Of a DNA stretch of 64,000 nt, positions 7,493 to 50,604 are shown piece after piece (position 1 is the stretch's first letter; every line of letters starts with the position of its first letter). Below the pieces are notes generated by a model, which was not told the origin of the DNA, searched no databases, and was given only the letters and a program-made list of their open reading frames with translations. Where the stretch lies: NCBI GenBank assembly GCA_016186495.1, contig JACPLO010000002.1:6857-70856 (forward strand). The letters are read 5' to 3'. Origin of the DNA: Candidatus Niyogibacteria bacterium. GTDB taxonomy: Bacteria; Patescibacteriota; Minisyncoccia; JACROR01. A program made the position numbers and the translations under genes.

Positions 7493-7570
7493 CCCCGTTA
7501 GAAATCTTCATAAATAAGGTTTCAAGCGGGGAAATGATTATGCAAAACAAAAAACAAATTTCTAACGGAG
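7493..7570. repeat. Palindromic repeat unit: ccccgttagaaat...atttctaacggag
   Basis: Inverted copies of the window-wide 9-mer. They flank the start of the 7534 CDS directly after the pilD stop. Confidence 0.7.
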
Positions 7571-7995
7571 TGAATATAAACATAAAAAAAGCTTTTCTCC
7601 AGATTTTTATCGGCGCGATAATTATCGGCGGATTGTTTTTTGTCGGCTTATCGCCGCGAGGCCAGAAATTTTCTTCAAATCCGGATAGCGTTAAGAACGG
7701 AGAAAAAAAATATTTTTTAACGCTTAATTACGGCAACGGAAAAATAAGAAAATTCAGCAGCGAAATGGCGGAGGAAAAGACCAGGGCGTGGAATCTGCTC
7801 CAGCTAGCCTCGGCCCAATCGGCGGTGTCAGTGGAAATTGAAGATGGATTTCTTCCCCGTTCCATTGATGGATTTAAAAACACCGATCAAAACAAATGGG
7901 TTTTATTCGTGAACGGAGCAAGGCAAACAAACGGCCCTTTTGAGGTGTTTGTCAAAAAGGGAGATTTGGTGGAGTTTAAGTATGAAAAACAATAA
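7534..7995 (+). CDS. Hypothetical membrane-anchored protein in pilus operon
   Basis: N-terminal TM then a beta-rich domain. No motif recognised. Codon 10-12 is the repeat-encoded SNG. Confidence 0.5.
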   Translation: MIMQNKKQISNGVNINIKKAFLQIFIGAIIIGGLFFVGLSPRGQKFSSNPDSVKNGEKKYFLTLNYGNGKIRKFSSEMAEEKTRAWNLLQLASAQSAVSVEIEDGFLPRSIDGFKNTDQNKWVLFVNGARQTNGPFEVFVKKGDLVEFKYEKQ

Positions 7996-8626
7996 AATAA
8001 ATTTTTTAAGGAGATTTACCCCATTAAATAGTTGCAAAGCAAATTTAACGGGGTTTACGGTTGTTGAAGTGTTGATTACCATGGGAGTTTTTGCGTTAGT
8101 TAGTTCAATGGTTTTGGCGAATTATCCCAAATTTTCCGAGCGGCTGACTCTGGAACAAACCGCTCAAAAAATCGCTTTATCTTTCCGGGAGGCAAAAATC
8201 CTCTCTTTAACGGTCGGAGAATCTGAAATTGGAACGCGAATTTTTCCCGGTTACGGCGTGCATTTTGACGCCGGTGAAAGCGGAAATAATAAAAGATATT
8301 TGATTTTTTCCGATCTTAACGCCGATAAAAAATATGCGGAGCCGGACGACGGAGAAAAAGATATTTTTGGAATCCAAAGCTCCGCTTTTATTTCAGGAGC
8401 TTGTTTCGGGGAAGAAGACGCCGGCAGTTTAAGCGAATGCCAAAGTTATAATCAAACGAAAATTTTAGATATAGTTTTTACTAGGCCAAAACCCAGCATT
8501 GATTTTTATGACGGCGAAAGAAGCCAGTGGCGAGGTGAGCAGAATGTCGGCATTTTTATCGTTAATCCCGAAGGCGATATTAAAAAAATAATTATCTGGA
8601 AAACCGGGCAGATAATGGTTGAATGA
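7940..8626 (+). CDS. Minor pseudopilin (prepilin-type cleavage/methylation domain)
   Basis: The track ORF starts at 7940; the start is uncertain. The mature end GFTVVEVLITMGVFALVSSM begins at ~8049. An unusually long leader, FTPLNSCKANLTG, is encoded by repeat DNA. Confidence 0.7.
   Translation: MRCLSKREIWWSLSMKNNKINFLRRFTPLNSCKANLTGFTVVEVLITMGVFALVSSMVLANYPKFSERLTLEQTAQKIALSFREAKILSLTVGESEIGTRIFPGYGVHFDAGESGNNKRYLIFSDLNADKKYAEPDDGEKDIFGIQSSAFISGACFGEEDAGSLSECQSYNQTKILDIVFTRPKPSIDFYDGERSQWRGEQNVGIFIVNPEGDIKKIIIWKTGQIMVE
8021..8058. repeat. Palindromic repeat (ccccattaaat...aatttaacgggg) overlapping pseudopilin leader
   Basis: Inverted-repeat pair of a family variant. The right arm encodes the L-T-G-F-T cleavage motif. 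Confidence 0.6.
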
Positions 8627-8640
8627 GATTTTATAATTAA

Positions 8641-8708
8641 TTCAAAAGTCAAAATGCAAAATTCAAAATTTCAATTCAAAATTCAAAAGTTTTATTTTTA
8701 ATTTTCAA
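8641..8708. repeat. AT-rich tandem TTCAAAA heptamer run
   Basis: About 6 direct copies of (a)ttcaaaa upstream of the PilV-like gene. Confidence 0.5.
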
Positions 8709-8710
8709 AT

Positions 8711-9235: not shown

Positions 9236-9892
9236 ATGGCTGAAGATTTTAAATTTAAAAAATTAAGGCGCGGGTCGCGGTTTCTAACGGGGTTTACCCC
9301 AGTTAAATCTTTCGCTTCGCGAAATTTAACGGGGTTTACCCCGTTAAATAGTTGCGAAGCAAATTTAACGGGGTTTACTCTGCTGGAGATGATTGTGTCT
9401 TTGGGAGTTTTTTCCGCGGCGATTTTGATTATTTTAGGGGCTATTTTGTCCATTAATGACGCTCAAAAGAAAATGATTAATATTCAGGCCGTTGAAGATA
9501 ATTTGCGTTTCGCTTTGGACGCAATGTCCAGAGAGATTCGGACCGGATCTGTCTATAATTGCGAAGGAGGAGGTTCGGCGTCCGATTGTCCGGCCGGATC
9601 GCCAATTTTCGCTTTTGATTCCATCAGCGGGGGAAGGATTATTTATCGTTGGAACAGCGTTAATAAAAGCATTGAAGAATCGGAAGACAATGGCTCAACT
9701 TATTATCCGATAACCGGCAACGATCTGAAAATAGAAAAATTAACTTTTTATGTTTTTGGAACAAGAACGATTGATTTTAAACAGCCGCGAGTGACAATGA
9801 TTATAAAAGCATTTGCCGGAGAAGAAAGAGTTAAAACTCGCTCGGAATTCAATATTCAAACCACGGTTACGCAAAGAGAATTAGATTCATAA
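9236..9892 (+). CDS. Minor pilin, PilW/GspJ-like, with triplicated leader
   Basis: Mature end GFTLLEMIVSLGVFSAAILIIL. The N-terminal extension contains three LTGFT repeats encoded by tandem palindromic repeats. Confidence 0.65.
   Translation: MAEDFKFKKLRRGSRFLTGFTPVKSFASRNLTGFTPLNSCEANLTGFTLLEMIVSLGVFSAAILIILGAILSINDAQKKMINIQAVEDNLRFALDAMSREIRTGSVYNCEGGGSASDCPAGSPIFAFDSISGGRIIYRWNSVNKSIEESEDNGSTYYPITGNDLKIEKLTFYVFGTRTIDFKQPRVTMIIKAFAGEERVKTRSEFNIQTTVTQRELDS
9284..9378. repeat. Tandem palindromic repeat array (taacgggg-ttta-cccc(a)gttaaat x3)
   Basis: Three nested hairpin units of the TAACGGGG family inside the 5' end of the PilW-like ORF. Confidence 0.75.
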
Positions 9893-16233: not shown

Positions 16234-16251
16234 TTATATTAGATTAGAAGG

Positions 16252-16326
16252 CGGACCCGACCGGATTTGAACCGGCGATCTTCCCCGTGACAGGGGGACG
16301 TGTTAACCGGGCTACACCACGGGTCC
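16252..16326 (-). tRNA. tRNA-Asp (GTC)
   Basis: Hand-folded cloverleaf: acceptor GGACCCG/CGGGTCC, anticodon loop CTGTCAC, T-loop TTCAAAT, 75 nt. Confidence 0.85.
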
Positions 16327-16362
16327 TTTAATGATATAAATTATACATAAAATCATTAAAAA

Positions 16363-16389
16363 TTGAAATAAGCATCAAGTGATGTATAA
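16363..16389 (+). promoter_or_regulatory. Candidate sigma70-like promoter for tRNA-Met (ttgaaa...tgtataat)
   Basis: TGTATAAT sits 8 nt upstream of the tRNA 5' end. The -35-like ttgaaa lies 15 bp upstream. Confidence 0.3.
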
Positions 16390-16397
16390 TGAATTTT

Positions 16398-16468
16398 AGC
16401 GGGGTAGACCAGTAGTAGGTCGCAAGGCTCATAACCTTGAAGCGCAGGTGCAATTCCTGCCCCCGCAA
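16398..16468 (+). tRNA. tRNA-Met (CAT), elongator-type
   Basis: Anticodon stem CAAGG/CCTTG, loop CTCATAA, D-stem GACC/GGTC, T-stem GCAGG/CCTGC. It has an A1·A72 mismatch and an atypical T-loop TGCAATT. Confidence 0.55.
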
Positions 16469-16469
16469 C

Positions 16470-17435
16470 ATGAAGATATTTATTACGAGGAAAATTCCCG
16501 AAGCGGGAATTAAAAAGCTCGCGGAAAAACACGAGATTAAAATCAGTCCGCATGATCGCGTTTTATCAAAAGAAGAATTGATTGCCGCGCTGAAAAATCA
16601 GGGATACGGCGCGGTGCTTTGCCTTTTAACCGATAAAATTGATGACGATGTTTTAGAAGCGGCCGGCAAGCAATGCCGGATTTTCGCCAATTTTGCCGTG
16701 GGTTTTGATAATATTGATCTGGTTGCGGCCAAAAAACGGGGCATAATAATTACCAATACGCCGGGAGTTTTAACGGACACCGTGGCAGAGCATACTTTTA
16801 CTTTGATGCTGGCGATTTCCCATCGGATTGCCGAAGCGGATAAATTCACCAAAACCGGAAAATACGAGGGCTGGGCGCCGATGCTTTTATTGGGAAATGA
16901 TTTATCAAGAAAAACTGTCGGCATTGTGGGTTTGGGGCGGATTGGCTCGCGCGTGGCCCATCACGCGGCTAAAGGATTTGACGCGCGCGTGATTTATCAC
17001 GACCTTCAGCGCAATAAAGAATTTGAGAAAGAATTTAACGCGGAATACAGGGAAAAATTGGAAGATTTATTGAAAGAGGCGGATTATGTTTCTCTGCATG
17101 TGCCGCTTTTGCCGGCCACGCGGCATTTGCTGAACGCCGAGCGGCTGAAATTAATGAAGCCGACCGCATATCTTATAAATACTTCGCGCGGGCCGGTGAT
17201 AGACGAAAAAGCGTTAGTGGAAGCGCTGCACGCCAAAATTATCAAAGGCGCGGCTTTGGATGTTTTTGAAAACGAACCGGCGTTAGCCGAAGGATTGGCA
17301 AAACTTGATAACGCAATTTTGACGCCGCATATCGCTTCCGCCACCGAAGAAACGCGCGGCAAAATGGCGGAATTGGCGGTAGATAACATTATTGCTGCTT
17401 TAGAAGGGCGGACACCTCCTAATTTAGTGGGGTAA
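16470..17435 (+). CDS. D-isomer-specific 2-hydroxyacid dehydrogenase (glycerate DH / hydroxypyruvate reductase family)
   Basis: GLGRIGSRVA NAD-binding motif with catalytic R/E/H context. The track ORF starts at TTG 16437 inside the tRNA, so the real start is probably ATG 16470. Confidence 0.82.
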   Translation: MKIFITRKIPEAGIKKLAEKHEIKISPHDRVLSKEELIAALKNQGYGAVLCLLTDKIDDDVLEAAGKQCRIFANFAVGFDNIDLVAAKKRGIIITNTPGVLTDTVAEHTFTLMLAISHRIAEADKFTKTGKYEGWAPMLLLGNDLSRKTVGIVGLGRIGSRVAHHAAKGFDARVIYHDLQRNKEFEKEFNAEYREKLEDLLKEADYVSLHVPLLPATRHLLNAERLKLMKPTAYLINTSRGPVIDEKALVEALHAKIIKGAALDVFENEPALAEGLAKLDNAILTPHIASATEETRGKMAELAVDNIIAALEGRTPPNLVG

Positions 17436-17491
17436 ACCCCGTTAGAAATCGCGAACGCAATGTTCGCGTTCTATTTCTAACGGGGTAAAAC
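17429..17491. repeat. Long palindromic repeat: ggggtaaaccccgttagaaat-cgcgaacgcaatgttcgcg-atttctaacggggtaaaac
   Basis: Near-perfect 60-bp hairpin built from the family 9-mer. The stop codon of the upstream gene lies inside it. Confidence 0.8.
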
Positions 17492-25264: not shown

Positions 25265-26707
25265 ATGTTTTTTAGAAAATTTCAAACTTTTGTTTTAATT
25301 TTTATTTTTATAACGGGCGCTTTTTTAAGCGTCCGTTCCGCGTTTTCTCAAAGCCAAACCGTTGACCCCGTTAGAGGTAAGATTCCGGAGGAATCTGCCG
25401 GTTTGCCGTTAGCAAATCGGACCTCTAACGGGGTTGATCCGGCCGCGATTTTGGAACAACGGGCTAAACTGCTGGAAGAAGAAAAGGAAGTGGAAGAACA
25501 GATTGGCGGATTGATGGTTATTATTCAAAATAAACAAGGGGAAACCGCCAGTTTGGAGCGCGATATCGCCATTATTAACGCCGAGATTAAAAAAGCAAAA
25601 CTGGCCATTAAAGCCAGAACTCTGACGATTGATAATCTTAATTCATCAATCGGAGAAAAATCTAAATTTATTGTTAAACTTTTAGACAAACAAGAGCGCG
25701 AAAAAGAATCTTTAGCCGAGCTTTTGCGGCAATTGAATGAATTTGGAGACACCACTTTAGTGGAGATTATTTTGGGTTATGAAAATCTTTCCGATTTTTT
25801 CGTGAATATGGATTCTTTGGATTTTCTTCAAAAATTCATTCAGGATTCTTTTGACGAAATTAAAATAACAAAAGAGAATACTGAAGAAGAGAAGTCTATT
25901 CTGGAAGAAAAAAAGAAAGAAGAATCAGAACTCCGTTATTTGCAGGAGCTTGAGAAAAAAAGAACTGAAGAAAGAGAAAAAGAAAAGAAAAAGATTTTAG
26001 AAATTACGCGCGGCGAAGAAAATGAATACCAAAAGCTTTTGGCCAGTCGGAAGAAAGATATTGCTCAAATCAGAAATCAACTTTTTATTTTGCGTGGTTC
26101 GGACGCCATTCCTTTTGAAAAAGCCATTGAATACGCCAATATCTCATTTAAGGCAACAGGCGTGCGCCCAGCTTTTCTTTTGGGAATAATTGCCGAAGAA
26201 TCCGAATTGGGCGCTAATTTAGGGTCCGGAAATTGGAAAACTGACATGTACGATTGTTATCGCCGAATCGGCTACAATAAGTCGGCGGAAAAACAAAAAA
26301 CCGCTTTTTTAGCGATTATTTCAGAATTATTTATTGACAGTCCTGATTCAAGGCCGGTTTCCAAAGCGCCGTATTACGGCTGCGGCGGAGCCATGGGGCC
26401 GGCGCAGTTTATGCCCGCTACTTGGTGGGATCCGGTTGGCAATACGGGATATAAAAAATTGATCGCTCAATATACCGGCCATAATCCTCCGGACCCGTGG
26501 AGTCCGGAAGACGCTTTTATGGCCGCGGCGCTTTTGCTTAAAGACAACGGCGCGGCGGCCGGAGGATTTACCGCGGAACGCCGGGCAGCTTTAAGATATT
26601 TAGCCGGCGGCAATTGGAATAAGCCGGCTTACGCTTTTTACGGCGACGACGTGATGGCTTTGGCTAAAAAATATCAAGATCAGATTGATATTTTAACGGA
26701 ATCTTAA
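25265..26707 (+). CDS. Secreted coiled-coil protein with C-terminal lytic-transglycosylase (SLT/lysozyme-like) domain
   Basis: Signal/TM, long coiled coil, then EESELG (catalytic E-S) and [13 protein letters not shown] motifs. The track ORF 25022 is a 5' over-extension. Confidence 0.55.
25365..25434. repeat. Palindromic repeat inserted in-frame in CDS (accccgttagaggt...acctctaacggggt)
   Basis: 14-bp perfect inverted repeats 42 bp apart. It encodes DPVRG...TSNGVDP in the linker of the transglycosylase protein. Confidence 0.8.
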
Positions 26708-28732: not shown

Positions 28733-28862
28733 GAATCCCGTTAGAGATTAAAGACTTTATTTTTTAACGGAATTTAAAAATATCTTTAATAATGATAATT
28801 AGAAATTATAAGAATAATTTACGGAAATGATTAAAATCATTTCCTATCTCTAACGGGATGAA
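28733..28862. repeat. 130-bp palindromic element, copy A (TIR atcccgttagagat / atctctaacgggat)
   Basis: About 90% identical to copies at 43461 and 50474. It has an internal perfect hairpin, ggaaatgatt-aaaa-tcatttcc. The tsf ATG at 28858 lies in the right TIR. Confidence 0.9.
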
Positions 28863-29900: not shown

Positions 29901-29918
29901 CCCGCCCCGTTAGAAATG
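29901..29918. repeat. Left 18-bp inverted repeat ccccgttagaaatgccga flanking tRNA-Thr
   Basis: Exact reverse complement of 29993-30010. Confidence 0.85.
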
Positions 29919-29989
29919 CCGACGTAGCTCAGTGGTAGAGCAACGGTTTTGTAAACCGTAGGTCGTGGGTTCAAATCCCTCCGTCGGCT
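29918..29989 (+). tRNA. tRNA-Thr (TGT)
   Basis: Hand fold: acceptor GCCGACG/CGTCGGC, D-stem GCTC/GAGC, anticodon stem ACGGT/ACCGT with loop TTTGTAA, T-loop TTCAAAT. 72 nt. Confidence 0.8.
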
Positions 29990-29992
29990 CAT

Positions 29993-30010
29993 CGGCATTT
30001 CTAACGGGGT
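29993..30010. repeat. Right 18-bp inverted repeat tcggcatttctaacgggg flanking tRNA-Thr
   Basis: Exact reverse complement of 29901-29918. Confidence 0.85.
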
Positions 30011-30048: not shown

Positions 30049-30109
30049 GATTAGATTTTTTACAATCATAATTCATGCGGCTTGCTTATTTATCAATGGA
30101 GATTAAAAA

Positions 30110-30877: not shown

Positions 30878-30890
30878 ATGGAAGAATAAT

Positions 30891-31475
30891 ATGAACTCGA
30901 TTATCTTTTCATATCTTACACATTGGCGAAGTTTGGGGTATGCGCTTGTATTTATCGGGATGATAATTGAAGGAGACATTATTTTGTTTACTTCTTCGTT
31001 TCTTGCGCATCAAGGTTTTTTTAATATCGGCGATTTAATGTTCTTTGCATTGGCCGGCGTATTAATAGGAGATTTACTGTGGTATTTGCTCGGCTGCCTG
31101 ATGGATAATCATATTAATAATAATTCCAATTTATCTTTTGTAGCCCGCTGGATAGCAAGAATCGCGAAGCCGCTTGACGCTCATCTTCTTAATCGTTCAT
31201 ACCGCACTATTTTTATTTCAAAATTTGCATTCGGCTTTCATCATGCGCTCTTAACGCGTTTAGGCATGCTTCGCTTTTCTTGGAAAAAATTTATTAAAAT
31301 TGATTTTATTTCCGCTGTGCCTTGGATGATTATAGTCGGCGGGCTCGGATATTTTTCTGGAGCAGCTTTTTTTGCTTCAAAACATTATCTTCGGTTAGCG
31401 GAAACAGGATTATTAATTACGCTTGTTCTTTTTCTTGCTATTGAACATTTCGTAATAAAGAAACTGAAACTTTGA
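30891..31475 (+). CDS. DedA/VTT-family membrane protein
   Basis: IGMIIEGDIILF...G motif region and a multi-TM topology. Confidence 0.55.
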   Translation: MNSIIFSYLTHWRSLGYALVFIGMIIEGDIILFTSSFLAHQGFFNIGDLMFFALAGVLIGDLLWYLLGCLMDNHINNNSNLSFVARWIARIAKPLDAHLLNRSYRTIFISKFAFGFHHALLTRLGMLRFSWKKFIKIDFISAVPWMIIVGGLGYFSGAAFFASKHYLRLAETGLLITLVLFLAIEHFVIKKLKL

Positions 31476-31476
31476 T

Positions 31477-32238: not shown

Positions 32239-32250
32239 ATTCCGTAATTT

Positions 32251-32934
32251 ATGAAAAAATACATAATTTCAGCCATAATTTTAATTTTGGGCTTAAGCGC
32301 GTATTATTTTATTTATCAGCTAAAAATCGGAGATAATAATATGAAGGAAGCAAACGAAAATTCTAAGGAGGATTTGAATCCCGTTAAAAATAACGAGTTG
32401 AGCGATGTTGAGAATAGCGCCGCGAAACAGCGTAAAATTTCTAACGGGATGAATCCGCGCGCGACGCTGGAAACGAGCATGGGTAATATTACGATAGAAC
32501 TTTATCCTAAAGATGCGCCGAAAACCGTGGCTAATTTTATCGGTTTAGCTAAAAAAGGATATTATAACGGCGTTATTTTTCATCGGGTGGTAAGCGGTTT
32601 TGTCATTCAGGGAGGCGATCCGACCGGCACGGGCGCCGGCGGCAATTCCATTTACGGCGGCGATTTTGAAGACGAACTTGATTTAAATACGGAAAGTTAT
32701 CAGCGCGGATATTTAAAAGGCGCGGTCGCGATGGCTAATCGCGGGCCTGACACTAATTCCAGCCAATTTTTTATTATGCTTGAAGATAAATCTTTGCCTA
32801 AGCTTTACACTATTTTCGGCAAAGTGGCGGAAGGAGATGATGTCGTCCAAAATATCGGCCGGGTGAAAGTAGGCGCTAATGACAAGCCATTGGCGCCGGT
32901 TATCATAAATAAAATTATTGTTGAAGGAAATTAG
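32251..32934 (+). CDS. Peptidyl-prolyl cis-trans isomerase (cyclophilin type), membrane-anchored
   Basis: GYYNGVIFHRVV...GGDPTGTGAGG cyclophilin core, with an N-terminal TM. Confidence 0.88.
   Translation: MKKYIISAIILILGLSAYYFIYQLKIGDNNMKEANENSKEDLNPVKNNELSDVENSAAKQRKISNGMNPRATLETSMGNITIELYPKDAPKTVANFIGLAKKGYYNGVIFHRVVSGFVIQGGDPTGTGAGGNSIYGGDFEDELDLNTESYQRGYLKGAVAMANRGPDTNSSQFFIMLEDKSLPKLYTIFGKVAEGDDVVQNIGRVKVGANDKPLAPVIINKIIVEGN
32375..32456. repeat. Palindromic repeat inserted in-frame in cyclophilin linker (ttgaatcccgttaaaaat...aatttctaacgggatgaat)
   Basis: The ends match the 130-bp element termini. It encodes NPVKNN...ISNGMNP between the TM anchor and the PPIase domain. Confidence 0.8.
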
Positions 32935-33014
32935 TCTTATTTCTAACGGGATTGATTTATTTTTTTTATAATGATATTTTTTAAATAAATAAGTTCATTT
33001 ATATCGGAGGCGAT

Positions 33015-33717: not shown

Positions 33718-34992
33718 ATGACAACTTCTAACGGGGTAAAACAAAATATCGTTATTTTGGGAGCGGGGTTTGCCGGCGTGAGAGCGGCTTTGGATTTAGC
33801 CAGATACCTGCCTTCGGAAGCGAAAATTACCCTGATTGACCGGAATTCTTTCCATTCATACACGCCGGCTTATTACGAAGTGGCGGCCGCTTTTTTGCCG
33901 GAAAAAGAAGAGCTTTCCCGGGAACAATTTGAATTATTGGCTTCAACCGCCGCCATTCCTCTTAAAACTATTTTTGAAAAATATAAAAATGTGGAATTGG
34001 CAATCGGCGAAGTGGCGGATATTTTGCCTGAAAAAAATCAGATTGAGATAAAATCGGGCGGAAAATACCGCTATGATTGGCTGATCATCGCTTTGGGAAG
34101 CGAACAAGATTATTTCGGGTTATCGGAGATCAAAAAATATGTTTATACTTTAAAAAGCCTGGAAGGCGCGCTTAATTTGCGGAACGGCATTGATGAATTA
34201 TTTTGGCGCCGGGCTAAGCATGAAAAAATAAAAATAATAGTGGCGGGCGGCGGATTTTTGGGAAGCGAGATAGCGGCCGAACTTGCCGGTTATGTCAAAA
34301 AACTTAATCGCCAACATTCTCGGCCAAAAGAAAATTGCGAAATAAGCATTATTGAAGGAGGACAGAATGTTTTAGGAAACGCCAGCGAATGGGCGCGGAA
34401 AAAAGCGGCCGGCCGGTTGGAAAAATTGGGCGTAAAAATTTCAACAAACAGTTTAATCAGCAAAGTAACCGAAGAAAAATTGATTTTGAAAGACGGCCAA
34501 ACTGTTTCTTATGATATTTTAATTTGGACAGTCGGCGTTCGGGCTTGCGCGATTACCGGCCAACTGGTCGGCCAAGGGCAAGAATTAAAGGGCAAAGGAT
34601 GCCTGGCCGTTGACCGATATTTGCGCGTCATTCCCTATGAAAATATTTTTGCCGCCGGAGATATTGCTTACGCGTCCGATTACGAAATAAATACTTTTAT
34701 GCCGATGACCGCTCAAGTCGCTATTCTTCACGGCCAATATATCGCTTACACGATAAAAAGAATGATTCGCAAACGCCGCCCGTTCCCTTATTGGCCGCAC
34801 CAAAATAGATTTAGCATCGCGCTTGGCGGAAAATACGCGCTTTTTGACGGAAAGCGGTTTAAATTCTCCGGTTTTTTCGCCTGGCTTTTGAAACATTTGA
34901 CGACTTTAAAATATTTCGCGGGCATTCTTCCTTTTTATCGCGCTTTTTTTATCTGGCAACGGGGTTTTAAGATATATAAAGATAACGATTAA
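33718..34992 (+). CDS. FAD-dependent pyridine nucleotide-disulfide oxidoreductase (NDH-2-like)
   Basis: N-terminal IVILGAGFAGV and a second IIVAGGGFLGSE dinucleotide fold. The start codon region ATGACAACTTCTAACGGGGT is a repeat half-site encoding MTTSNGV. Confidence 0.7.
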   Translation: MTTSNGVKQNIVILGAGFAGVRAALDLARYLPSEAKITLIDRNSFHSYTPAYYEVAAAFLPEKEELSREQFELLASTAAIPLKTIFEKYKNVELAIGEVADILPEKNQIEIKSGGKYRYDWLIIALGSEQDYFGLSEIKKYVYTLKSLEGALNLRNGIDELFWRRAKHEKIKIIVAGGGFLGSEIAAELAGYVKKLNRQHSRPKENCEISIIEGGQNVLGNASEWARKKAAGRLEKLGVKISTNSLISKVTEEKLILKDGQTVSYDILIWTVGVRACAITGQLVGQGQELKGKGCLAVDRYLRVIPYENIFAAGDIAYASDYEINTFMPMTAQVAILHGQYIAYTIKRMIRKRRPFPYWPHQNRFSIALGGKYALFDGKRFKFSGFFAWLLKHLTTLKYFAGILPFYRAFFIWQRGFKIYKDND

Positions 34993-37088: not shown

Positions 37089-37433
37089 ATGGAACAAAAA
37101 ATAAATCCCGTTAAAAGTTTTATAGCAAAAAAAGTATTAACTAAAAAGAAAGCCGAAGGCGAATTTGTCGACAAAAGTATGGATAACGACAAGCTCGGCA
37201 GAACTTCTAACGGGATAAAAAAAATTTTAGAAACTGAAATCGCGCCGATGCTCGCGATGCATGGCGGAAGAGTGGAATTTGTCAGTTTTGAAGAGGGGAC
37301 GGTAAAAATTCGGCTTAAAGGCGCTTGCCATGGCTGCGCGCTTTCCGAATTAACCTTGAAAGAAGGCGTGGAAAGAATTCTTAAAGAAAAAATCCGCAAA
37401 ATAAAAAGCGTGGAAAATGTTGAACCCCGTTAG
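37089..37433 (+). CDS. NifU C-terminal-domain (Nfu-type) Fe-S carrier with repeat-encoded N-terminal extension
   Basis: MHGGRVEFVSFEEGTVKIRLKGACHGC CxxC motif. The first ~42 codons are encoded by a palindromic repeat. Confidence 0.78.
   Translation: MEQKINPVKSFIAKKVLTKKKAEGEFVDKSMDNDKLGRTSNGIKKILETEIAPMLAMHGGRVEFVSFEEGTVKIRLKGACHGCALSELTLKEGVERILKEKIRKIKSVENVEPR
37103..37216. repeat. Palindromic repeat in-frame at 5' end of nfu (aaatcccgttaaaagtt...aacttctaacgggat)
   Basis: 15-bp inverted repeats ~100 bp apart. It encodes NPVKSF...RTSNGIKK. Confidence 0.8.
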
Positions 37434-37537
37434 AAGTTCAACCATGCTTTATTATATTAAAATCAAAAGTAAGCAAAGTCGCCTAACGGCTCACTTTAAT
37501 GTAAATTTTTATTATTATGACAACTTCTAATGGGGTG
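37422..37537. repeat. Palindromic repeat spanning nfu stop to nifS2 start (gaaccccgttagaagtt...aacttctaatggggtg)
   Basis: The left arm contains the nfu TAG stop. The right arm overlaps the nifS2 ATGACAACTTCTAATGGGGTG start. Confidence 0.8.
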
Positions 37538-42756: not shown

Positions 42757-43458
42757 ATGGAAAATTATCAAGTTAAAATTAAACAGTTTGAAGGGCCATT
42801 TAATCTTTTATTGGATTTGATTGAAGAGCGGAAACTTTCCATCAATGAGATTTCTCTGGCGGAAGTTTCCAGCCAATATCTCGATTATCTTAGAAAACTT
42901 CCTCAATTGCCGCGCGCCGAAGCCGCTTCTTTTTTAGTTGTGGCCGCGGCTTTAATTTTAATAAAATCAAAATCGCTGCTTCCTTCTTTTGAGCTGACCG
43001 GGGAAGAAGAAGAATCCATTGAAGATTTAAAAAAACGGCTTGAACTTTACAAAAAAATGCGGCAGTTTTCATTTTATATTAATTCTTTATACGGCAAAAA
43101 AATAGTTTATAAACGTGAAGCTTTTTTGGGCGTCAAACTTGGTTTTATTGAACCGAAAGGAATCAAGATAAGCGCGCTTTGCGCGGCTCTTAAAAATTTA
43201 ATGAGAACTTTTCCGGCAAAAGAAATAATTCCAGAGAAAATAATTGAAAAAGTGGTAAAACTGGAGGATAAAATAGATGAACTGCGCCGGCGGATGGAAA
43301 AAATGATAAAAACTTCTTTTCGGGAGTTTGCCGGTTTTGAAGATAAAACCGGTTTGGTGGTCAGTTTTTTAGCGATGCTCGAGCTGGTAAAATTAGGAGC
43401 AGTTGCGGTTATTCAAAAAGAGCATTTTGGCGATATTGAAATCAGCAAATCATTTTAA
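42757..43458 (+). CDS. scpA: Segregation and condensation protein A (kleisin)
   Basis: ScpA N-terminus FEGPFNLLLDLIEERKLSINEISLAEV. Confidence 0.85.
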   Translation: MENYQVKIKQFEGPFNLLLDLIEERKLSINEISLAEVSSQYLDYLRKLPQLPRAEAASFLVVAAALILIKSKSLLPSFELTGEEEESIEDLKKRLELYKKMRQFSFYINSLYGKKIVYKREAFLGVKLGFIEPKGIKISALCAALKNLMRTFPAKEIIPEKIIEKVVKLEDKIDELRRRMEKMIKTSFREFAGFEDKTGLVVSFLAMLELVKLGAVAVIQKEHFGDIEISKSF

Positions 43459-43460: not shown

Positions 43461-43595
43461 AATGAATCCCGTTAGAGATTAAAACCTTTATTTTTTAACG
43501 GAATTTAAAAATAACATCAATGAAAATAATTAGAATTACAAGAATAATTCACGGAAATGATTTTAATCATTTCCTATCTCTAACGGGATGAATTT
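43461..43595. repeat. 130-bp palindromic element, copy B
   Basis: About 90% identical to copies A and C. It sits between the scpA stop and scpB. The scpB ATG at 43588 is inside the right TIR. Confidence 0.9.
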
Positions 43596-44217
43596 ATCCA
43601 ACATTATAGAATCAATTTTGTTTATTTACGGCGAGCCGATGAAAATATCGCGGCTGGCTGAAATTTTAAACAAAAAAGAAAACGAAGTGGAAGAGGCTTT
43701 GGCGGTTTTGGAAAATAATTTAGCGGAACGGGGATTAAAATTAATTAAAAACAACGGCGAAGCAACGCTGGCCACTGTTTCCGAAGCTTCCGAATTTATC
43801 CAAGGGCTTTTAAAAGAAGAATTCAGCGGTAAATTAACCAAAGCGGCTTTAGAAACTTTGGCGATTGTCGCATATTCAGGCCCTTTGCCGCGCGCGGAAA
43901 TTGATTTTATCAGGGGAGTAAATTCTTCTTTCATTTTGCGGAATTTGCTGATCAGCGGGCTGGTGGAAAGGGAAATTAATCCTAAAGACCGGAGAACTTT
44001 TATTTATAAGCCGTCAATGGATTTTTTGCGGTTTTTAGGCCTTAGTAAATTAGAAGATTTGCCGGAATACGGCGAATTTCGGAAAAGTTTGGAAGATTTT
44101 TCGTCCCTCACGCTTAATTTAAACGTGAGGGGCGAAGAAGAAATAAATCCCGTTAGAAGCCGTGATCGCTTTATGAAACAGCCGCAATCTAATGAAAATC
44201 AAAATTCATCAGAATAA
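43588..44217 (+). CDS. scpB: Segregation and condensation protein B
   Basis: Winged-helix ScpB motifs (IESILFIYGEP...), adjacent to scpA. Confidence 0.85.
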   Translation: MNLSNIIESILFIYGEPMKISRLAEILNKKENEVEEALAVLENNLAERGLKLIKNNGEATLATVSEASEFIQGLLKEEFSGKLTKAALETLAIVAYSGPLPRAEIDFIRGVNSSFILRNLLISGLVEREINPKDRRTFIYKPSMDFLRFLGLSKLEDLPEYGEFRKSLEDFSSLTLNLNVRGEEEINPVRSRDRFMKQPQSNENQNSSE

Positions 44218-44268
44218 AATTAAATTTCTATCAGATCGCCGATCACAATCTGCTTCTAACGGGATAAA
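44147..44268. repeat. Palindromic repeat spanning scpB 3' end (aaatcccgttagaagc...gcttctaacgggat)
   Basis: 14-bp inverted repeats ~105 bp apart with an internal gtgatcg/cgatcac inverted repeat. The last ~23 scpB codons (INPVRSRD...) are repeat-encoded. Confidence 0.75.
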
Positions 44269-46315: not shown

Positions 46316-47371
46316 TTATAACTCTATTTTAGAAAGCGCGCCGCCATCCAAAACATAGACGGTTTTTTGAGAAGGGCGGACGGCAAAAGTCGGATTTTTG
46401 CCTTTGTAAATCGGCTGCATATTGCGATTGCCGCGGCCGTCAATTTCTAAGGCAAAAATGCCGTTTTCCGCGGCAAAAATAATAACATCTTCTCTTAAAG
46501 GAAAGAAATCAATATTTTTGATGGGAGAACGGGTTTTGATAATCATTTCTTTTTCCGCCGACAAATAATAAGGAAGAGGGAGATTTTTTTCCAGCCATTC
46601 GGTCCAGATTTCATTGTCTTTTTCCAACCAGATTTTTAATTTTTTATGCTTGTCAAATCTGATAAATTGGCGCGCCTGATCCTCGCCTTCATTTTCGGTT
46701 AGAAGATATTCGGGAGCTGGCGCGGGAAAAGCGCGAACCGTTTTGTTTTCAAAATCAAATTCGGTTTTTAAAAAAGAACGATCGGAAAAAGAAAGCAAAG
46801 CCGTTTGATTTTCCGGCCAATAAACATCGCCTATTTTTTTAAAAGAAGAAAAGATTTTATTTATTGAGATTGAGGCGTTTGTCATAAATTCTTCGGAAGC
46901 CGGAAGATAAAAAACTATTTTTCTCATTTCGTTTTTTAATTCTTCCAGGATTAATATTTCATCAAAAGGTGAAGCAAAAACGGAGATAAAAGGTCCTCGC
47001 GCCAGAGTTTTTCCCTCCGGCGAACGGGGAATTAGGAAAGCGCGGGCTTCCGTTACCAATTGAGGATTTATTTTCAGATTTTTTTGCCAAGGCCAATAGT
47101 TTTCTTTAGCCACCAGAGCGGAATAAACATCGGGTTTTAGATTTTGGATGAAGACTCCGCCTTGCAAAAGATTTGTTTGTTTTTCCAGGTTGTTGTCAAT
47201 AAATATCTCTGAACTGGAAAGAGGAGAATAAATATAAATTCCTCCGGTTTTGGCTAAAGACCAATTATTCGCCAAGCGATAGCCGGCGGTATACAAAAGA
47301 ACAAGCGGCGTGATAATAAAAAAAACCGCGATTGAAAGAAAAAGTAATTTTCGCCGATATTTAAGAGTCAT
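46316..47371 (-). CDS. Hypothetical membrane-anchored periplasmic protein
   Basis: N-terminal TM, 351 aa. It is the only minus-strand gene in the cell-wall block. No family recognised. Confidence 0.45.
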   Translation of the reverse strand: MTLKYRRKLLFLSIAVFFIITPLVLLYTAGYRLANNWSLAKTGGIYIYSPLSSSEIFIDNNLEKQTNLLQGGVFIQNLKPDVYSALVAKENYWPWQKNLKINPQLVTEARAFLIPRSPEGKTLARGPFISVFASPFDEILILEELKNEMRKIVFYLPASEEFMTNASISINKIFSSFKKIGDVYWPENQTALLSFSDRSFLKTEFDFENKTVRAFPAPAPEYLLTENEGEDQARQFIRFDKHKKLKIWLEKDNEIWTEWLEKNLPLPYYLSAEKEMIIKTRSPIKNIDFFPLREDVIIFAAENGIFALEIDGRGNRNMQPIYKGKNPTFAVRPSQKTVYVLDGGALSKIEL

Positions 47372-47435
47372 TAATAATCATTATATCTTCTGCTTTTTCC
47401 TTGTAAAGCGCCGGAAAATAGGATAAAATTTCGGC

Positions 47436-48716
47436 GTGAGGCGATTGAACGAAGAAAAATTCATTATTAAAGGATCGGCTGGAAGGCTCAAAGGAATTAT
47501 TCCGGTCAGAGGTTCAAAAAATGCCTGTTTGAAGGCGATGGCTGCCGCGGTTTTAACCGATAAGCCGATAACAATTAAGAATGTTCCTTTAATTGAAGAT
47601 GTTTTTAGAATGCGGGAGCTTTTGGAATTTTTAGGCGCCGAAGTTAAAGAAACAGGCCGGCGTTCTTTTTTAATTTCAGCGGAAAATATAAAAAAATCCT
47701 GTCTTGATTTTGAGATCGCTAAATCTTTTAGGGCGTCTGTGGTGCTGACCGGACCTCTTTTAGCCCGTTTGGGGACTGTTTCTTTTCCTTTCCCCGGCGG
47801 CTGCGTGATCGGCAAGCGGCCGATCGATATGTTTCTTAATGGTTTTGAAAAAATGGGAGCCAAGGTTTTTACAAATGGAAAAGGAAATAATTTTACGATT
47901 AAAGCCAAGGTATTGAAAGGCGCGGAAATTTTTTTTCGGATAGTCAGCGTAACCGGCACGGAGACTTTAATGATGGCGGCAACATTGGCGCGAGGGCGCA
48001 CTGTTTTGCGCAATGCCGCTCAAGAACCGGAGATCATAAATTTAGCTGATTTTTTAAACAGTTGCGGAGCGCGAATTAAAGGCGCCGGCACCAGTACCAT
48101 CGTCATCAACGGCGTAAAAAAGCTCGGCCCCGGAGTTTTTAATACGCCGCCTGATCGGATTGAAACCGGAAGTTTTTTGATTTTAGGAGCGCTTTCAGGG
48201 GATAAATTACGCGTGATTCATTGCAATCCTCTTCATATTTTAAGTCTGATTGAATATTTGGAATCAATGGGCGTTAGTTTAAAAAAAGGAAAGGATTGGG
48301 TGGAAATAAGCCGGCCGAAATTTTTCAAGCCAGTGAACATAAAGACCAGCGAGTATCCCGGTTTTCCTACCGATCTTCAAGCGCCATTTTCCGTTTTATT
48401 GACCCAAGCTAAGGGAACAAGTTCGTTGTTTGAAACGGTTTATGACGGCCGTTTGAATTATATCAATGATTTAGTTAGAATGGGCGCGAATATTATTTTA
48501 TGCGACGCGCATCGGGCGATATTCCACGGGAAAACTTATTTAAAGGGCAGGGAAGTGGAAGCCCCGGATCTTCGGGCCGGCCTGACTTTTATTTTAGCCG
48601 CTTTGATTGCCAAAGGAAAATCTATCATTCATAATGTTTATAATATAGATCGGGGATATGAAAAAATAGAAGAAAGGCTGTGGGACGCGGGGGCGGCCAT
48701 CAAAAGAATTATTTGA
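47436..48716 (+). CDS. murA: UDP-N-acetylglucosamine 1-carboxyvinyltransferase
   Basis: GSKNA...MAAAVL N-terminal motif and the EPT fold. 426 aa, starting at GTG or a nearby TTG. Confidence 0.9.
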   Translation: MRRLNEEKFIIKGSAGRLKGIIPVRGSKNACLKAMAAAVLTDKPITIKNVPLIEDVFRMRELLEFLGAEVKETGRRSFLISAENIKKSCLDFEIAKSFRASVVLTGPLLARLGTVSFPFPGGCVIGKRPIDMFLNGFEKMGAKVFTNGKGNNFTIKAKVLKGAEIFFRIVSVTGTETLMMAATLARGRTVLRNAAQEPEIINLADFLNSCGARIKGAGTSTIVINGVKKLGPGVFNTPPDRIETGSFLILGALSGDKLRVIHCNPLHILSLIEYLESMGVSLKKGKDWVEISRPKFFKPVNIKTSEYPGFPTDLQAPFSVLLTQAKGTSSLFETVYDGRLNYINDLVRMGANIILCDAHRAIFHGKTYLKGREVEAPDLRAGLTFILAALIAKGKSIIHNVYNIDRGYEKIEERLWDAGAAIKRII

Positions 48717-48748
48717 CTTTTACTTTTTGATTTCTGAATTTTTTTATT

Positions 48749-49762
48749 ATGTCTATTTTTGTTAAAAAATTAGGGATAGATTTGGGTACGGCCAATACTT
48801 TGGTTTTCGTGCCCGGCCGGGGAGTGATTTTGAATGAACCGTCAGTGGTGGCGGTTTCGGTTCCGGATAATAAAGTAATCGCCGTGGGGAATGAAGCGCG
48901 CGTGATGATCGGCAAAACGCCGGACGACATCGTGGCTTATCGTCCGATGAAAGACGGAGCAATCGCCGATTATCGGGTAACCGAAGCCATGCTTCGTTAT
49001 TTTATCGGCAAAGCTCTTCCCAAGTGGAATATTTTTAGGCCGGAAGTGATGGTTTCCGTGCCGGCCGGCGTTAATTCCACTCAGACAAGATCGGTGATGG
49101 AAGCGGCGATGAAAGCGGGAGCGCGCGCCGCTTACGTTATTAAAGAGCCGATTTTAGCGGCGATCGGCGCCAACATTCCCATTCATGAGCCGACCGGACA
49201 TATGATTGTTGATATCGGAGGAGGAACTACGGATGTGGCGGTTATTTCTTTAGGCGGAATTGTGGTTTCTACTTCCGTAAAAATGGCAGGCAATAAAATT
49301 GACCAAGCAATCATTGATTATGCCAAGAAAGCGTTTAATTTGGCGATTGGCGACCGAACCGCCGAAGACATTAAAATTACGATTGGTTCGGCTTTAGCTT
49401 TAGGCGAAGATTTGGCTTATCAAGTCAAAGGGAGAGATTTTCTGACCGGCCTGCCCCGTTCCACGGAAATAAAAACTTTTGAAATCGTAAAGGCGATTGA
49501 ATCTGAACTTCAAGAAATTATCAAAGCGATTAAGGCGGTTCTTCAGGATACTCCGCCGGAACTTGCTTCGGATATCATTGATAAAGGAATTACGATGAGC
49601 GGCGGTTCTTCGCTTTTAAGGAATTTAGACGAATTAATCCATCGGGCGACCGGCATTAAAGCGTATTTAGCCGAAGATCCTCTGCTTTGCGTGGCCCGCG
49701 GCACGGGCATTGCTTTGGAACATTTGGATATTTATAAAAAAAGCGTCATTACTAAAAAATAA
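48749..49762 (+). CDS. mreB: Rod-shape-determining actin homologue MreB (paralogue 1)
   Basis: LGIDLGTANTLVFV phosphate-1 and DIGGGTTD phosphate-2 motifs. Confidence 0.9.
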   Translation: MSIFVKKLGIDLGTANTLVFVPGRGVILNEPSVVAVSVPDNKVIAVGNEARVMIGKTPDDIVAYRPMKDGAIADYRVTEAMLRYFIGKALPKWNIFRPEVMVSVPAGVNSTQTRSVMEAAMKAGARAAYVIKEPILAAIGANIPIHEPTGHMIVDIGGGTTDVAVISLGGIVVSTSVKMAGNKIDQAIIDYAKKAFNLAIGDRTAEDIKITIGSALALGEDLAYQVKGRDFLTGLPRSTEIKTFEIVKAIESELQEIIKAIKAVLQDTPPELASDIIDKGITMSGGSSLLRNLDELIHRATGIKAYLAEDPLLCVARGTGIALEHLDIYKKSVITKK

Positions 49763-49779
49763 TAATTGCCGCAAAAATA

Positions 49780-50478
49780 GTGCCTTACCCATTTTTATTG
49801 CAATCCCATATTAAATCCGGCCGATTGGCTCACGGATATTTGTTGATCGGTTCAATTGAACAGGCAAGAAAAATCGCGGCGGAAGCGGCCGGCCGGCTGC
49901 TTGAAAATTTCAATCAAAACCATCCTGATTTTTTTGAATTTTGCGGCGAATCTTTCGGCATCAGCGAGGCGAGAGAGTTAATCAGAAAAACTTATCTGAA
50001 AGCATTCGGCGCCGGCAACAAAAAAATATTTTTTATCGGCGCGGAAACTATAACTTTGGAAGCTGCCAGCGCGCTTTTAAAAACAATGGAAGATTTTTCA
50101 GACGCGGCGCATTTTTTTCTTTCCGTTCTTTCGGAGGAAAATTTGCCGGTTACTCTTTGTTCGCGATTGGTTAAAATCCGGATGGCTTTTGAGCCGGAAG
50201 CGGGCTTCACGGACTATTGGCGGAATTTTGAAAAGAAACCTCATATTGATAAAATGGAATATCTTAAAAAAATAGCGGATAAAAAAGATGAAAAAGAACA
50301 AAAAAAAATTTTGGACGCCCGCGAAATTTATTTTGAAGATATTTTAAAAAATAGCGGCAATGACGAACAGCGAAAAAAATCTTTGGAAAATTTGGAAAAT
50401 CTGGTTTTCGCGAGAGAATTAATGGACGGTCCGGCCGCTTATCCTAAATCTATTTTAGAATATCTGATATTAACATGA
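49780..50478 (+). CDS. DNA polymerase III delta'-like clamp-loader subunit (short)
   Basis: N-terminus HGYLLIGS... resembles HolB, but at 232 aa it is truncated relative to canonical delta'. Confidence 0.5.
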   Translation: MPYPFLLQSHIKSGRLAHGYLLIGSIEQARKIAAEAAGRLLENFNQNHPDFFEFCGESFGISEARELIRKTYLKAFGAGNKKIFFIGAETITLEAASALLKTMEDFSDAAHFFLSVLSEENLPVTLCSRLVKIRMAFEPEAGFTDYWRNFEKKPHIDKMEYLKKIADKKDEKEQKKILDAREIYFEDILKNSGNDEQRKKSLENLENLVFARELMDGPAAYPKSILEYLILT

Positions 50479-50604
50479 ATCCCGTTAGAGATTAAAACCT
50501 TTATTTTTTAACGGAATTTAAAAATATCATCAATGAAGATAATTGGAAATTACAAGAATAATTTACGGAAATGATTTTAATCATTTCCTATCTCTAACAG
50601 GATG
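50474..50604. repeat. 130-bp palindromic element, copy C
   Basis: About 90% identical to copies A and B. The holB-like TGA stop lies in the left TIR (aacATGAatcccg). The right TIR is slightly degenerate (taacagg). Confidence 0.9.

Follow-up and report, generated by a model that had tools for sequence, protein, structure and literature searches.

A family of short hairpin-forming elements with terminal inverted repeats and target-site duplications in a Candidatus Niyogibacteria genome

Prokaryotic miniature inverted-repeat transposable elements, or MITEs, such as Nezha, Chunjie and MITEAba12 are small, have terminal inverted repeats (TIRs) and target-site duplications (TSDs), encode no transposase, occur in many copies with stable hairpins, and are present or absent at orthologous sites. 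The Correia elements of Neisseria (CREE/NEMIS) are ~100-150 bp long and numerous for a small genome. Their TIRs of ~26 bp form a long stem by pairing, their duplication is TA, they possess an IHF site, and their interiors are homogeneous; they lie beside genes with which they are co-transcribed. We know of no start-codon targeting by them, nor of clear TIR-plus-TSD termini in the Rickettsia palindromic elements (RPEs). RPEs are selfish DNA placed in frame in protein genes and translated with the protein; the peptides that their families encode are conserved, and roughly half of the copies lie within genes (PMC10969869). In the sections of PMC3184786 that treat such repeats, Chunjie is given 21-bp TIRs and 9-bp direct repeats, while Neisseria REP2 and the upstream inverted repeats of Borrelia lie directly upstream of genes, provide their start codon and carry a promoter, a site for ribosome binding and an ATG; neither a TSD nor empty sites are mentioned there for them. 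Here we describe a family of elements in a 64-kb stretch of a Candidatus Niyogibacteria contig (JACPLO010000002.1, positions 6,857 to 70,856), hereafter the window, that end in the 9-mer CCCGTTAGA and its complement TCTAACGGG. As a rule, the genomes of this group, the Patescibacteria or candidate phyla radiation (CPR), are portrayed as streamlined, with little mobile DNA.

On both strands of the window the 9-mer has 20 exact matches, whereas dinucleotide-preserving shuffles of the window give a mean of 0.27 and a maximum of 2 for TCTAACGGG, which is the most frequent 9-mer not dominated by A/T (rank 3 in the filtered list). TCTAACGGR occurs 21 times, and 32 matches are found if one mismatch is allowed in the 9-mer; the figure of more than 30 copies in the first-pass annotation, which was made from the letters of the window, therefore holds with one mismatch but not for exact matches. 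Its other claims about the repeat, namely over-representation (seen here at the level of the window, against a dinucleotide-corrected expectation) and an arrangement almost always as inverted pairs, are borne out. There are 11 inverted pairs, each with CCCGTTAGA first and TCTAACGGG second, the opposite order occurring only where two elements abut; they span 47-121 bp, both 9-mers included, and only 3 of the 20 exact 9-mers are without a partner arm. Every pair tested folds into a long closing stem, with free energy z-scores of -3.5 to -8.4 against shuffled controls. Altogether ~14 complete copies are present in the window, along with several fragments of ends; this amounts to about one every 4 kb, and the genes around them include ribosomal, Fe-S cluster and cell-division ones. 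The copies align into a family with conserved inverted termini, contrary to the outcome that the first-pass annotation had named as its refutation, and its GGGGTTTACCCC variant is the junction of tandem copies, that is, a right end, a TSD and a left end.

An element has the layout 5'-Y CCCGTTAGA RRY ... RYY TCTAACGGG R-3'. The base just outside each 9-mer covaries, being either C on the left and G on the right or T on the left and A on the right (C-G and T-A types below), so that the conserved TIR is 10 bp long, YCCCGTTAGA. Perfect complementarity mostly ends at 13 bp, with positions 11-13 varying freely yet staying paired. Over 101 distinct elements, 97.9% of the cells of this 13-bp stem are paired, and the paired fraction falls to 37-54% in slid-register controls; cells changed on both sides number 144 against 43 in column shuffles, none of 500 shuffles reaching 144. 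The mismatches comprise 6 G.U and 9 A.C, with no bias toward the sense RNA. The interior ranges from a few nt to ~110 nt, and the whole element from 33 to 123 bp in the window and up to ~135 bp in metagenome loci.

The TSDs of the window, read in the + orientation, are TGAA (six copies), TAAA (three), TTGA (one) and TTTA for three copies in pilin leaders. The favoured insertion sites are A/TGAA and G/TAAA (the slash marking the point of insertion), TTGA being rare. A metagenome scan with the pattern CCCGTTAGA-N(80-110)-TCTAACGGGRTRAA, in which the left flank is not specified, extended the set to 174 elements from the window and 120 metagenome loci. The 4-nt flanks are identical in 98 of the 174, TGAA going with TGAA and TAAA with TAAA, and mixed pairs are essentially never seen (Fisher p ~1e-22). 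As the flanks match although the left one was absent from the search pattern, they represent a true duplication rather than a fixed motif. The T-A end type is nearly confined to TGAA sites (34 of 36). Nested insertions (L015, L082) and tandem insertions with one common duplication are also present.

Direct evidence of mobility comes from empty sites in relatives. Three relatives were identified by EF-Ts among species-representative genomes: a Patescibacteria metagenome-assembled genome (MAG) with 90% amino-acid identity (L001), a Candidatus Niyogibacteria MAG with 67% (L002) and another Patescibacteria MAG with 66% (L003). Neither the 9-mer nor a comparable repeat occurs in their related loci, which are syntenic and amount to 50 kb in total. 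L001 is collinear with 24.5-33 kb of the window at 80-89% nucleotide identity over aligned blocks, and the alignment is interrupted exactly at three elements, E3, E4 and E6 of Table 1 (25366, 28736, 32379). In the SLT-domain gene L001 reads ...AAACC GTTGAT CCGG..., with a single GTTGAT, where the window has ...AAACC GTTGAC(CCCGTTAGAGG...CCTCTAACGGG)GTTGAT CCGG...; at the tsf start it reads AATAATGAAAACGG where the window has ATGAAT(CCCG...CGGG)ATGAAG; and in the cyclophilin gene it reads GGTGAATCCGCG where the window has TTGAAT(CCCG...CGGG)ATGAATCCGCG. L003 has the empty sites for E7 and E8 (37106 and 37425), which makes five empty junctions in all, each with a single copy of the duplicated bases. 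The Nfu protein of L003 is without the 38-codon block found after codon 6 of the window Nfu, and its nfu and nifS genes overlap, whereas E8 separates them in the window. Since L002 and L003, as outgroups, are also without copies, the insertions are gains in the lineage of the window. There is thus little doubt that the 9-mers are the termini of a family of mobile hairpin elements with a TSD. At the strain level no polymorphism was found, contigs with identical proteins being the same strain with the same copies. The S2 gene shows a length difference of another kind: its in-frame N-terminal extension of ~105 bp relative to L001 (window 27895-28002) has no element termini and can be put down to an ordinary indel, the tail being variable; the Pfam S2 domain begins only at residue 66 of the mechanical open reading frame (ORF).

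Table 1. Elements and element ends in the 64-kb window, with flanking duplications and setting.
Feature	Coordinates	Strand	Size, type or arms	Flanks	Setting and remarks
Possible degenerate unpaired right end	6052..6061	+	ACTAACGGG + A; one-mismatch match	then TAAA	no left partner found; weak; outside the reported span
E1	7493..7570	+	78 bp, C-G type	TSD TGAA 7489-7492, 7571-7574	
Mini-element	8019..8053	-	35 bp, degenerate arms CCCATTAAA/TTTAACGGG	TSD TTTA 8015-8018, 8054-8057	pilin-like gene leader
Unpaired right end	9283..9292	-			opens tandem array in pilin-like gene 9236-9892
Mini-element	9297..9334	-	38 bp	TTTA 9293-9296, 9335-9338, shared with neighbours	prepilin leader; in frame, stop-free
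Mini-element	9339..9373	-	35 bp	TSD TTTA 9335-9338, 9374-9377	same prepilin leader; regenerates LTG/FTLLEM
E2	17437..17485	+	49 bp, simple hairpin, C-G type	TSD TAAA 17433-17436, 17486-17489	fold z = -8.4
E3	25366..25433	+	68 bp	TSD TTGA 25362-25365, 25434-25437	fold z = -8.0
E4	28736..28858	+	123 bp, T-A type, TACGG-hairpin subfamily	TSD TGAA 28732-28735, 28859-28862	tsf start codon
E5	29905..30009	+	inverted pair	no TSD (left CCCG, right TAAA)	encloses tRNA-Thr(UGU) 29918-29990
E6	32379..32449	+	71 bp, left arm CCCGTTAAA	TSD TGAA 32375-32378, 32450-32453	
Unpaired right end	32942..32951	+		A+TTGA	8 nt past cyclophilin stop codon
Unpaired right-end fragment	33718..33736 (9-mer at 33727)	+	ATGACAACTTCTAACGGGG		gives NDH-2-like gene its ATG, residues MTTSNGV
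E7	37106..37215	+	110 bp, left arm CCCGTTAAA	TSD TAAA 37102-37105, 37216-37219	
E8	37425..37535	+	111 bp, C-G type, right arm TCTAATGGG	TSD TGAA 37421-37424, 37536-37539	
E9	43467..43588	+	122 bp, E4 subfamily	TSD TGAA 43463-43466, 43589-43592	scpB start codon
E10	44148..44264	+	117 bp, AGCCGYGATCGC subfamily	TSD TAAA 44144-44147, 44265-44268	
E11	50480..50602	+	123 bp, E4/E9 subfamily, right arm TCTAACAGG	TSD TGAA 50476-50479, 50603-50606	

Being shorter than the ~300 bp that limits MITEs, without a transposase gene, and bounded by TIRs and a TSD with empty sites, the elements are MITEs by definition. The first-pass annotation had called them a REP-, Correia- or RPE-like mobile or structural element not previously named for this kind of genome. 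Mobility is confirmed by the empty sites in L001 and L003, and RPE-like in-frame insertions do occur, but the anatomy is that of a MITE and not of REP or Correia sequences. As to novelty, we found no matching paper, Rfam family or named MITE, and no description of these ends, of MITEs in Patescibacteria, CPR or Parcubacteria, or of a MITE with a bridging ORF, in a literature coverage that was incomplete; the family is not specific to this genome, as it occurs in many metagenome contigs.

All the features listed above for prokaryotic MITEs are found here too. The differences lie in a TIR core of just 10 bp and a 4-bp TSD of fixed sequence, which set the elements apart from Chunjie; in interiors that are nearly all different even in one genome while the same ends recur across very divergent hosts; in the lack of any known parent insertion sequence; and in insertion at a start codon, which rebuilds the start. 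The insertions in the SLT-domain protein, cyclophilin, Nfu, the ScpB tail and the three pilin leaders recall RPEs, but most copies lie at gene boundaries, only arm residues (NPVR or SNG) recur, interiors and peptides are unrelated between copies, and the host belongs to Patescibacteria. The size, the pairing of the TIRs into a long stem, the copy number in a small genome and the position beside genes are shared with Correia elements, from which a TIR of 10-13 bp and a TRAA duplication separate them. In contrast to REP2 and the Borrelia repeats, the TSD and the terminal base together yield the ATG or GTG, and no ribosome-binding site comes with the element.

Integron attC sites and the REP/REPIN-RAYT system resemble the family in having variable hairpins of very variable length with a short conserved stem and covariation that keeps the fold. 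The boxes of attC stand in the opposite order, without a TSD, in cassette arrays beside intI; here the order is GTTAGA...TCTAAC, the copies are dispersed over a syntenic set of housekeeping genes, and no integrase came to light. REPs lie outside genes, have a 5' GTAG that is conserved and no TSD, and are linked to a RAYT gene, whereas the present elements have a TSD, are in some cases intragenic, and have no Y1 transposase match in the window. Elements derived from IS200/IS605 insert 3' of a fixed tetra- or pentanucleotide without duplication. Against a palindrome-associated sequence of that type speak the true, mutually pairing TIRs, while the TRAA beside both ends could be a cleavage site; no TnpA gene was seen.

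Surviving copies sit where the damage is least, a pattern that takes in stop codons, tolerant in-frame regions or prepilin leaders, and start codons. At stop codons the left TSD retains the TGA or TAA. E1 lies on a former ATGA overlap between the stop of pilD and the start of the next gene: its left TSD preserves the pilD TGA (7489-7491), its right-end G together with TG makes a GTG, and the short ORF from the original ATG reads MNPVRNLHK before its stop. The left TSD of E2 is the TAA stop of the 2-hydroxyacid dehydrogenase gene (17433-17435), and that of E11 contains the TGA stop of the holB-like gene (50476-50478). The concentration of copies at gene boundaries reported earlier is thus mostly right, but these three stops, said to lie inside repeat arms, are in the duplicated TRAA just outside them, and the scpA stop (43456-43458), likewise placed in an arm, is in fact ~10 nt upstream of it. 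The remaining assignments stand: E8 is inserted two codons into nifS and its left-arm TAG is also the nfu stop (37431-37433), the ATGs of tsf and scpB consist of the last element base plus the TSD, and those of the NDH-2-like gene (33718) and nifS (37517) fall within right-end sequence. In the former of these two, 14 nt of the fragment recur at the right end of E8, and the orthologues in L002 and L003 begin MIQN and MMKN. TAA is also used as a flanking stop codon, which rules out an alternative code with UGA as Gly.

Every copy within a coding sequence has a length that, with the duplication, is a multiple of three and free of stops: E3 in the SLT-domain gene (72 bp in total), E6 in the N-terminal region of the cyclophilin gene (75 bp), E7 after nfu codon 6 (114 bp; the NifU domain begins at residue 43) and the three pilin mini-copies. 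Such copies are, judged from their frames, translated as part of the protein, which speaks against their excision from the RNA. Each arm can be read through in a single frame, N-P-V-R inward and S-N-G outward, hence the recurring peptides. The scpB frame enters E10 and stops inside it at 44217, and both ScpB and Nfu now have element-encoded C-termini. The pilin-like genes are struck at GGG/TTTA/C, the Gly-Phe-Thr codons of the prepilin-peptidase cleavage site (8015-8057, 9283-9377), in the first case in frame as ...RRFTPLNSCKANLTG/FTVVEV; as each insertion regenerates ...LTG/FT..., the added residues remain in the cleaved leader. The prepilin site (GGG TTT ACN, which contains GTTTAC) is a natural hot spot for the G/TAAA/C target on the other strand.

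Start codons are the most conspicuous target, and most TGAA-type copies are seated exactly on one. In 87% of TGAA-type copies an A precedes the left TGAA, that is, the site is ATGAA, and the right end plus TG begins an ORF of at least 60 codons in 45 of the 95 TSD-bearing elements. Five of the six TGAA-type copies of the window lie on a start codon or at most two codons from one, while the window contains 851 TGAA sites and 11 of its 51 genes begin with ATGAA. TAAA-type copies are 15 sense and 9 antisense, without strong strand bias.

How could an insertion between a gene and its translation start be tolerated? The seating on the start codon, together with a short ORF that is kept open, suggests an answer, of which our incomplete literature coverage gave no report for prokaryotic MITEs. 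In start-codon copies the original ATG, still in its native upstream context, opens a short ORF beginning M-N-P-V-R. This ORF is in frame with the downstream gene in only 8 of 44 such copies, where one third would be expected (p = 0.02), and in 24 of the 44 it spans the element and ends at a right-end stop, either the TAA of TCTAACGGG, 4 nt before the rebuilt start, or a TGA that overlaps it as (A or G)TGA (-4). In 22 of 41 copies no stop interrupts the interior in the frame of the short ORF, compared with 5 and 1 in the other sense frames, 4-6 in the antisense frames and 3.9 in shuffled interiors; the binomial p is ~4e-12 against a chance expectation of 10%, which is close to the shuffle result. 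Because the open cases represent 23 unrelated sequence clusters, shared ancestry is not the explanation. E8 is a complete example, in which an ORF of ~37 codons opens at 37416, taken to be the nifS ATG before insertion, and closes at the TAA of the right arm, with a GTG 4 nt on, at 37535. In E4, E9 and E11 a 6-codon ORF, MNPVRD and a stop, covers exactly the 13-nt left arm.

A Shine-Dalgarno-like motif stands 4-18 nt upstream in only 6 of 51 window genes, most starts following A/T-rich sequence, and the organism appears to initiate translation largely without Shine-Dalgarno pairing. Initiation probably depends on context and lack of structure, which makes unwinding of the hairpin by ribosomes a plausible requirement. 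Insertion duplicates 4 bp, and in start-codon copies the last element base (A or G) with the TSD rebuilds an ATG or GTG. The original ATG would then start the MNPVR... ORF in the sole frame open across the left arm; its translation would melt the closing stem, and in E4, E9 and E11 it would at least do this and expose the rebuilt ATG. In most copies the short ORF would run on to the TAA 4 nt upstream or to the overlapping TGA at the right arm, and the downstream gene would be expressed by termination-reinitiation. Taken by itself, we give this coupling step a slight preference.

The same ends and the same TSD rule were found in at least 120 metagenome contigs, whereas chance matches to the scan pattern amount, by our estimate, to ~30 per terabase. 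The left flank in these loci is nearly always ATGAAY, GTAAAC or similar and equal to the right flank. The carrier contigs, one of which is the 700-kb Ga0155180_11, have 31-65% GC, and the conservation of a 10-bp end over such hosts points to a conserved mobilising enzyme. Sixteen loci encode a homologue of a window protein, the closest in each locus being 33-75% identical; an exact-protein look-up assigned L053 to Candidatus Nomurabacteria and L037 to Candidatus Azambacteria. Contigs with elements of the GC-rich GTAAAC type encode Etf, Hdr-like, FlpD and TctC proteins, a content that does not look CPR-like, and to judge from such gene content the family may cross phyla. Among these contigs, L057, L127-L129 (Ga0208192_1000027 and relatives), L018, L013 and L105 carry C-G/GTAAA-type elements with GC-rich internal hairpins, beside genes for EtfAB, Hdr-like CCG proteins, FlpD, TctC, a molybdopterin oxidoreductase and long GAF/PAS histidine kinases; among the internal hairpins, several (GGGGCATTAAACCCC) resemble decayed right end-TSD-left end junctions of nested copies.

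Interiors and ends differ sharply in conservation. The 174 interiors fall into 143 clusters even at a loose threshold, and in the window only E4, E9 and E11 (28736, 43467, 50480) have alike interiors, at 89-95% identity (E9 is 89% identical to E4 and 95% to E11). This subfamily is also present in L053 and in other contigs from several metagenome samples, where the hairpin beside the right arm is kept (TTACGG-stem-loop-stem-CCT, with three pairs showing compensatory changes) and the central ~70 nt are unalignable. E10 has relatives in L037 and other loci. In the ~29 window ends, by contrast, we counted only ~10 substitutions in the 9-mers over ~260 end positions, one-mismatch matches being included in this tally. 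The contrast hints either at rapid turnover or at selection on the arms in situ, that is, a host function. A scan with promoter consensus sequences gave promoter-like matches inside three elements of the TACGG subfamily, not above background.

What moves the elements? Pfam scans of 74 window ORFs, which include all non-nested + strand ORFs of at least 80 aa except four (three of the four received Pfam families through a matching contig), revealed neither a transposase nor an integrase nor an HUH protein. Only housekeeping functions are encoded: type IV pilus, LigA, GatCA, enzymes of glycolysis and the pentose-phosphate pathway, S2/EF-Ts, Fe-S cluster assembly, ClpB, ScpAB, cell-wall and MreB genes. 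Neither a cognate autonomous insertion sequence nor a transposase-sized ORF was found between ends in the 64-kb window or in 820 kb of loci, and all distant left-right end pairs with a matching TSD proved to join ends of different small elements, separate or nested. Clustering of 1,196 locus ORFs returned only housekeeping families, with no mobile-looking protein recurring near elements; 3 of 120 loci had a Xer-like recombinase and 3 a 23S-IVS/Avd-like protein, without clear enrichment of either, and viral contigs held five short copies and no long element. The mobilising enzyme would presumably be encoded elsewhere in the genome, act in trans and recognise the terminal 9-10 bp; as the arms covary, recognition is probably of the duplex of a folded single strand.

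Taken together, we favour the explanation that these are non-autonomous, hairpin-forming DNA transposons, MITEs by anatomy, tolerated at start codons through translational coupling, and put its probability at roughly 0.8. Several observations weigh against it. Neither the window nor the 820 kb of loci yielded an autonomous partner or a mobilising enzyme, so that the word transposon draws on anatomy and insertion polymorphism only. Flanks do not match in 76 of the 174 pairs, among them all those that enclose a tRNA gene, and the metagenome sample was picked by a pattern that requires RTRAA on one side and a gap of 80-110 nt. Near-invariant ends with unalignable interiors are not what simple selfish decay predicts. 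With regard to coupling, the short ORF of E4, E9 and E11 ends ~100 nt before the rebuilt ATG, and termination-reinitiation is therefore not the whole story there; nor are Shine-Dalgarno motifs enriched at the original starts (9 of 44, against a background of 17%).

TIRs with a TSD are the signature of DDE transposons, and a serious rival, for the mobilisation step only, is that folded single-strand hairpins are moved by a structure-specific enzyme, either of the HUH/Y1 type as in IS200/IS605 or REP-RAYT or an integron-like tyrosine recombinase, in which case the apparent TSD would be a tetranucleotide serving as a shared core or as the point of cleavage. At arm positions 1 and 11-13 covariation takes the place of conservation, complete-looking elements go down to 25-38 bp and would be hard to bend into a DDE synapse (small copies may, on the other hand, be internal deletions), the duplicated core is limited to TGAA or TAAA and always matches, and no DDE partner came to light in the window or the loci. 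The joined ends of tandem copies, TCTAACGGG-RTRAAY-CCCGTTAGA, resemble a recombinase site in which a 6-bp spacer separates two inverted arms, and the symmetric G.U and A.C mismatches (6 and 9) fit a constraint at the DNA level. Yet no HUH or integrase gene is linked to the elements, the Xer-like genes in 3 of 120 loci being, as we estimate, about what chance gives; IS200/IS605 has two subterminal hairpins on one strand and no TIR; attC has its boxes reversed (RYYYAAC...GTTRRRY); and IS200/IS605-like insertion into the lagging-strand template predicts a strand bias that the TAAA copies do not strongly show. We consider this route less likely than not. It is also conceivable that the hairpins are primarily RNA or DNA signals selected by the host, such as RNase III-type stems, mRNA stabilisers, attenuators or protein-binding sites, and that mobility is secondary or past. 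The near-invariant 9-mer ends beside interiors that cannot be aligned within one genome, the compensatory changes that maintain pairing, the five pairs set around tRNA genes, of either orientation, in the manner of processing stems and lacking a TSD, and the right-subterminal hairpin that covaries in one subfamily across metagenome samples (L053 among them) would all suit such a role. But three relatives with 66-90% EF-Ts identity have the same genes expressed without a copy in 50 kb of syntenic DNA, copies insert with a duplication, nest and land in coding sequences, no asymmetry points to the sense RNA, and Rfam searches of the window (gathering threshold) and seven loci (E-value threshold) returned no family other than tRNAs and one chance miRNA match. 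A primary host signal thus seems improbable to us.

Two further readings can be given very little weight. A DNA uptake sequence (DUS or USS) serving the type IV pilus in competence, with inverted pairs as terminators, would match a motif 9 nt long that recurs about every 3 kb, forms inverted pairs where genes end and prefers certain coding frames, as well as the full type IV pilus set encoded in the window; it is contradicted by the empty-site comparisons, which reveal insertions with a TSD rather than point-mutational conversions and a motif wholly absent from relatives, and it sits badly with nearly all copies being paired (3 of 20 exact matches are without a partner arm) and with the same ends in hosts of 31-65% GC from apparently more than one phylum. 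Removal from RNA in the manner of an intron is called to mind by the direct repeats flanking a stem, whose precise excision would restore the mRNA, and by the unusual insertions for which CPR rRNA genes are known. We rejected it on the in-frame, stop-free constraints: all coding copies are multiples of three without stops, and a short ORF is kept open at start-codon copies, and neither constraint would be expected if the element were spliced. There is, besides, no ribozyme or bulge-helix-bulge geometry and no Rfam match.

The favoured explanation can be carried further, though only speculatively, to a cross-phylum superfamily adapted to start codons in compact, Shine-Dalgarno-poor operons. A structure-specific enzyme might take the folded single strand by its 10-bp terminal duplex and insert it at A/TGAA, where the ends would rebuild the start; the ends would leave one frame open inward and put stops in the other two at the exit, and ribosomes from the old ATG would unwind the hairpin and pass to the rebuilt start. 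This extension we hold to be doubtful. If it were true, the element would carry its own translational bypass, with arms selected for both mobility and host gene expression. On a practical level, elements of this kind can break assemblies and mislead gene callers through false N-terminal extensions, wrong starts and changed C-termini, and they add peptide segments to conserved proteins.

A separate group consists of five pairs that enclose a tRNA gene in either orientation and have no TSD (E5 at window 29905-30009, L027, L068, L070 and L106). The arms of E5 extend into the first five nucleotides of tRNA-Thr. Degenerate tRNA-like halves flank E5 at 29868-29904 and 30010-30048, split in the anticodon loop at TTTTG/TAAAC, a perfect G/TAAA target; joined, they give an ARAGORN match only at a relaxed threshold, with an encoded CCA end. 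Between tRNA-Thr and the cyclophilin gene lies a block of ~2.2 kb (30010-32250) encoding a BPD_transp_1 permease, a VTT/DedA-domain protein and an ABC ATPase. The block is absent from L001, where the flanking genes are adjacent, and in L002 and L003 the NDH-2 gene directly follows the tRNA. Recombination between elements is the simplest reading of this region.

Some neighbouring genes deserve mention. The release-factor gene at 26704-27579 (-) has an RF-1 and a PCRF domain, and its match to the PCRF profile starts at position 59; its ORF looks N-terminally truncated, as expected for prfB with a programmed +1 frameshift, and the gene calls on L124 put an L31 gene a short way downstream, likewise on the minus strand. 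The tRNA-Asp and tRNA-Met genes stand head to head at 16250-16469, and as the mechanical TTG start of the 2-hydroxyacid dehydrogenase (ORF 16437-17435) overlaps tRNA-Met (16398-16469), its real start is further downstream. A 351-aa ORF at 46316-47371 (-), without a Pfam match even at E = 0.05, lies between a Glycos_transf_4 gene and an EPSP_synthase-family gene taken as murA, and the minus-strand ORF 47381-48013, which overlaps the latter, is probably spurious.

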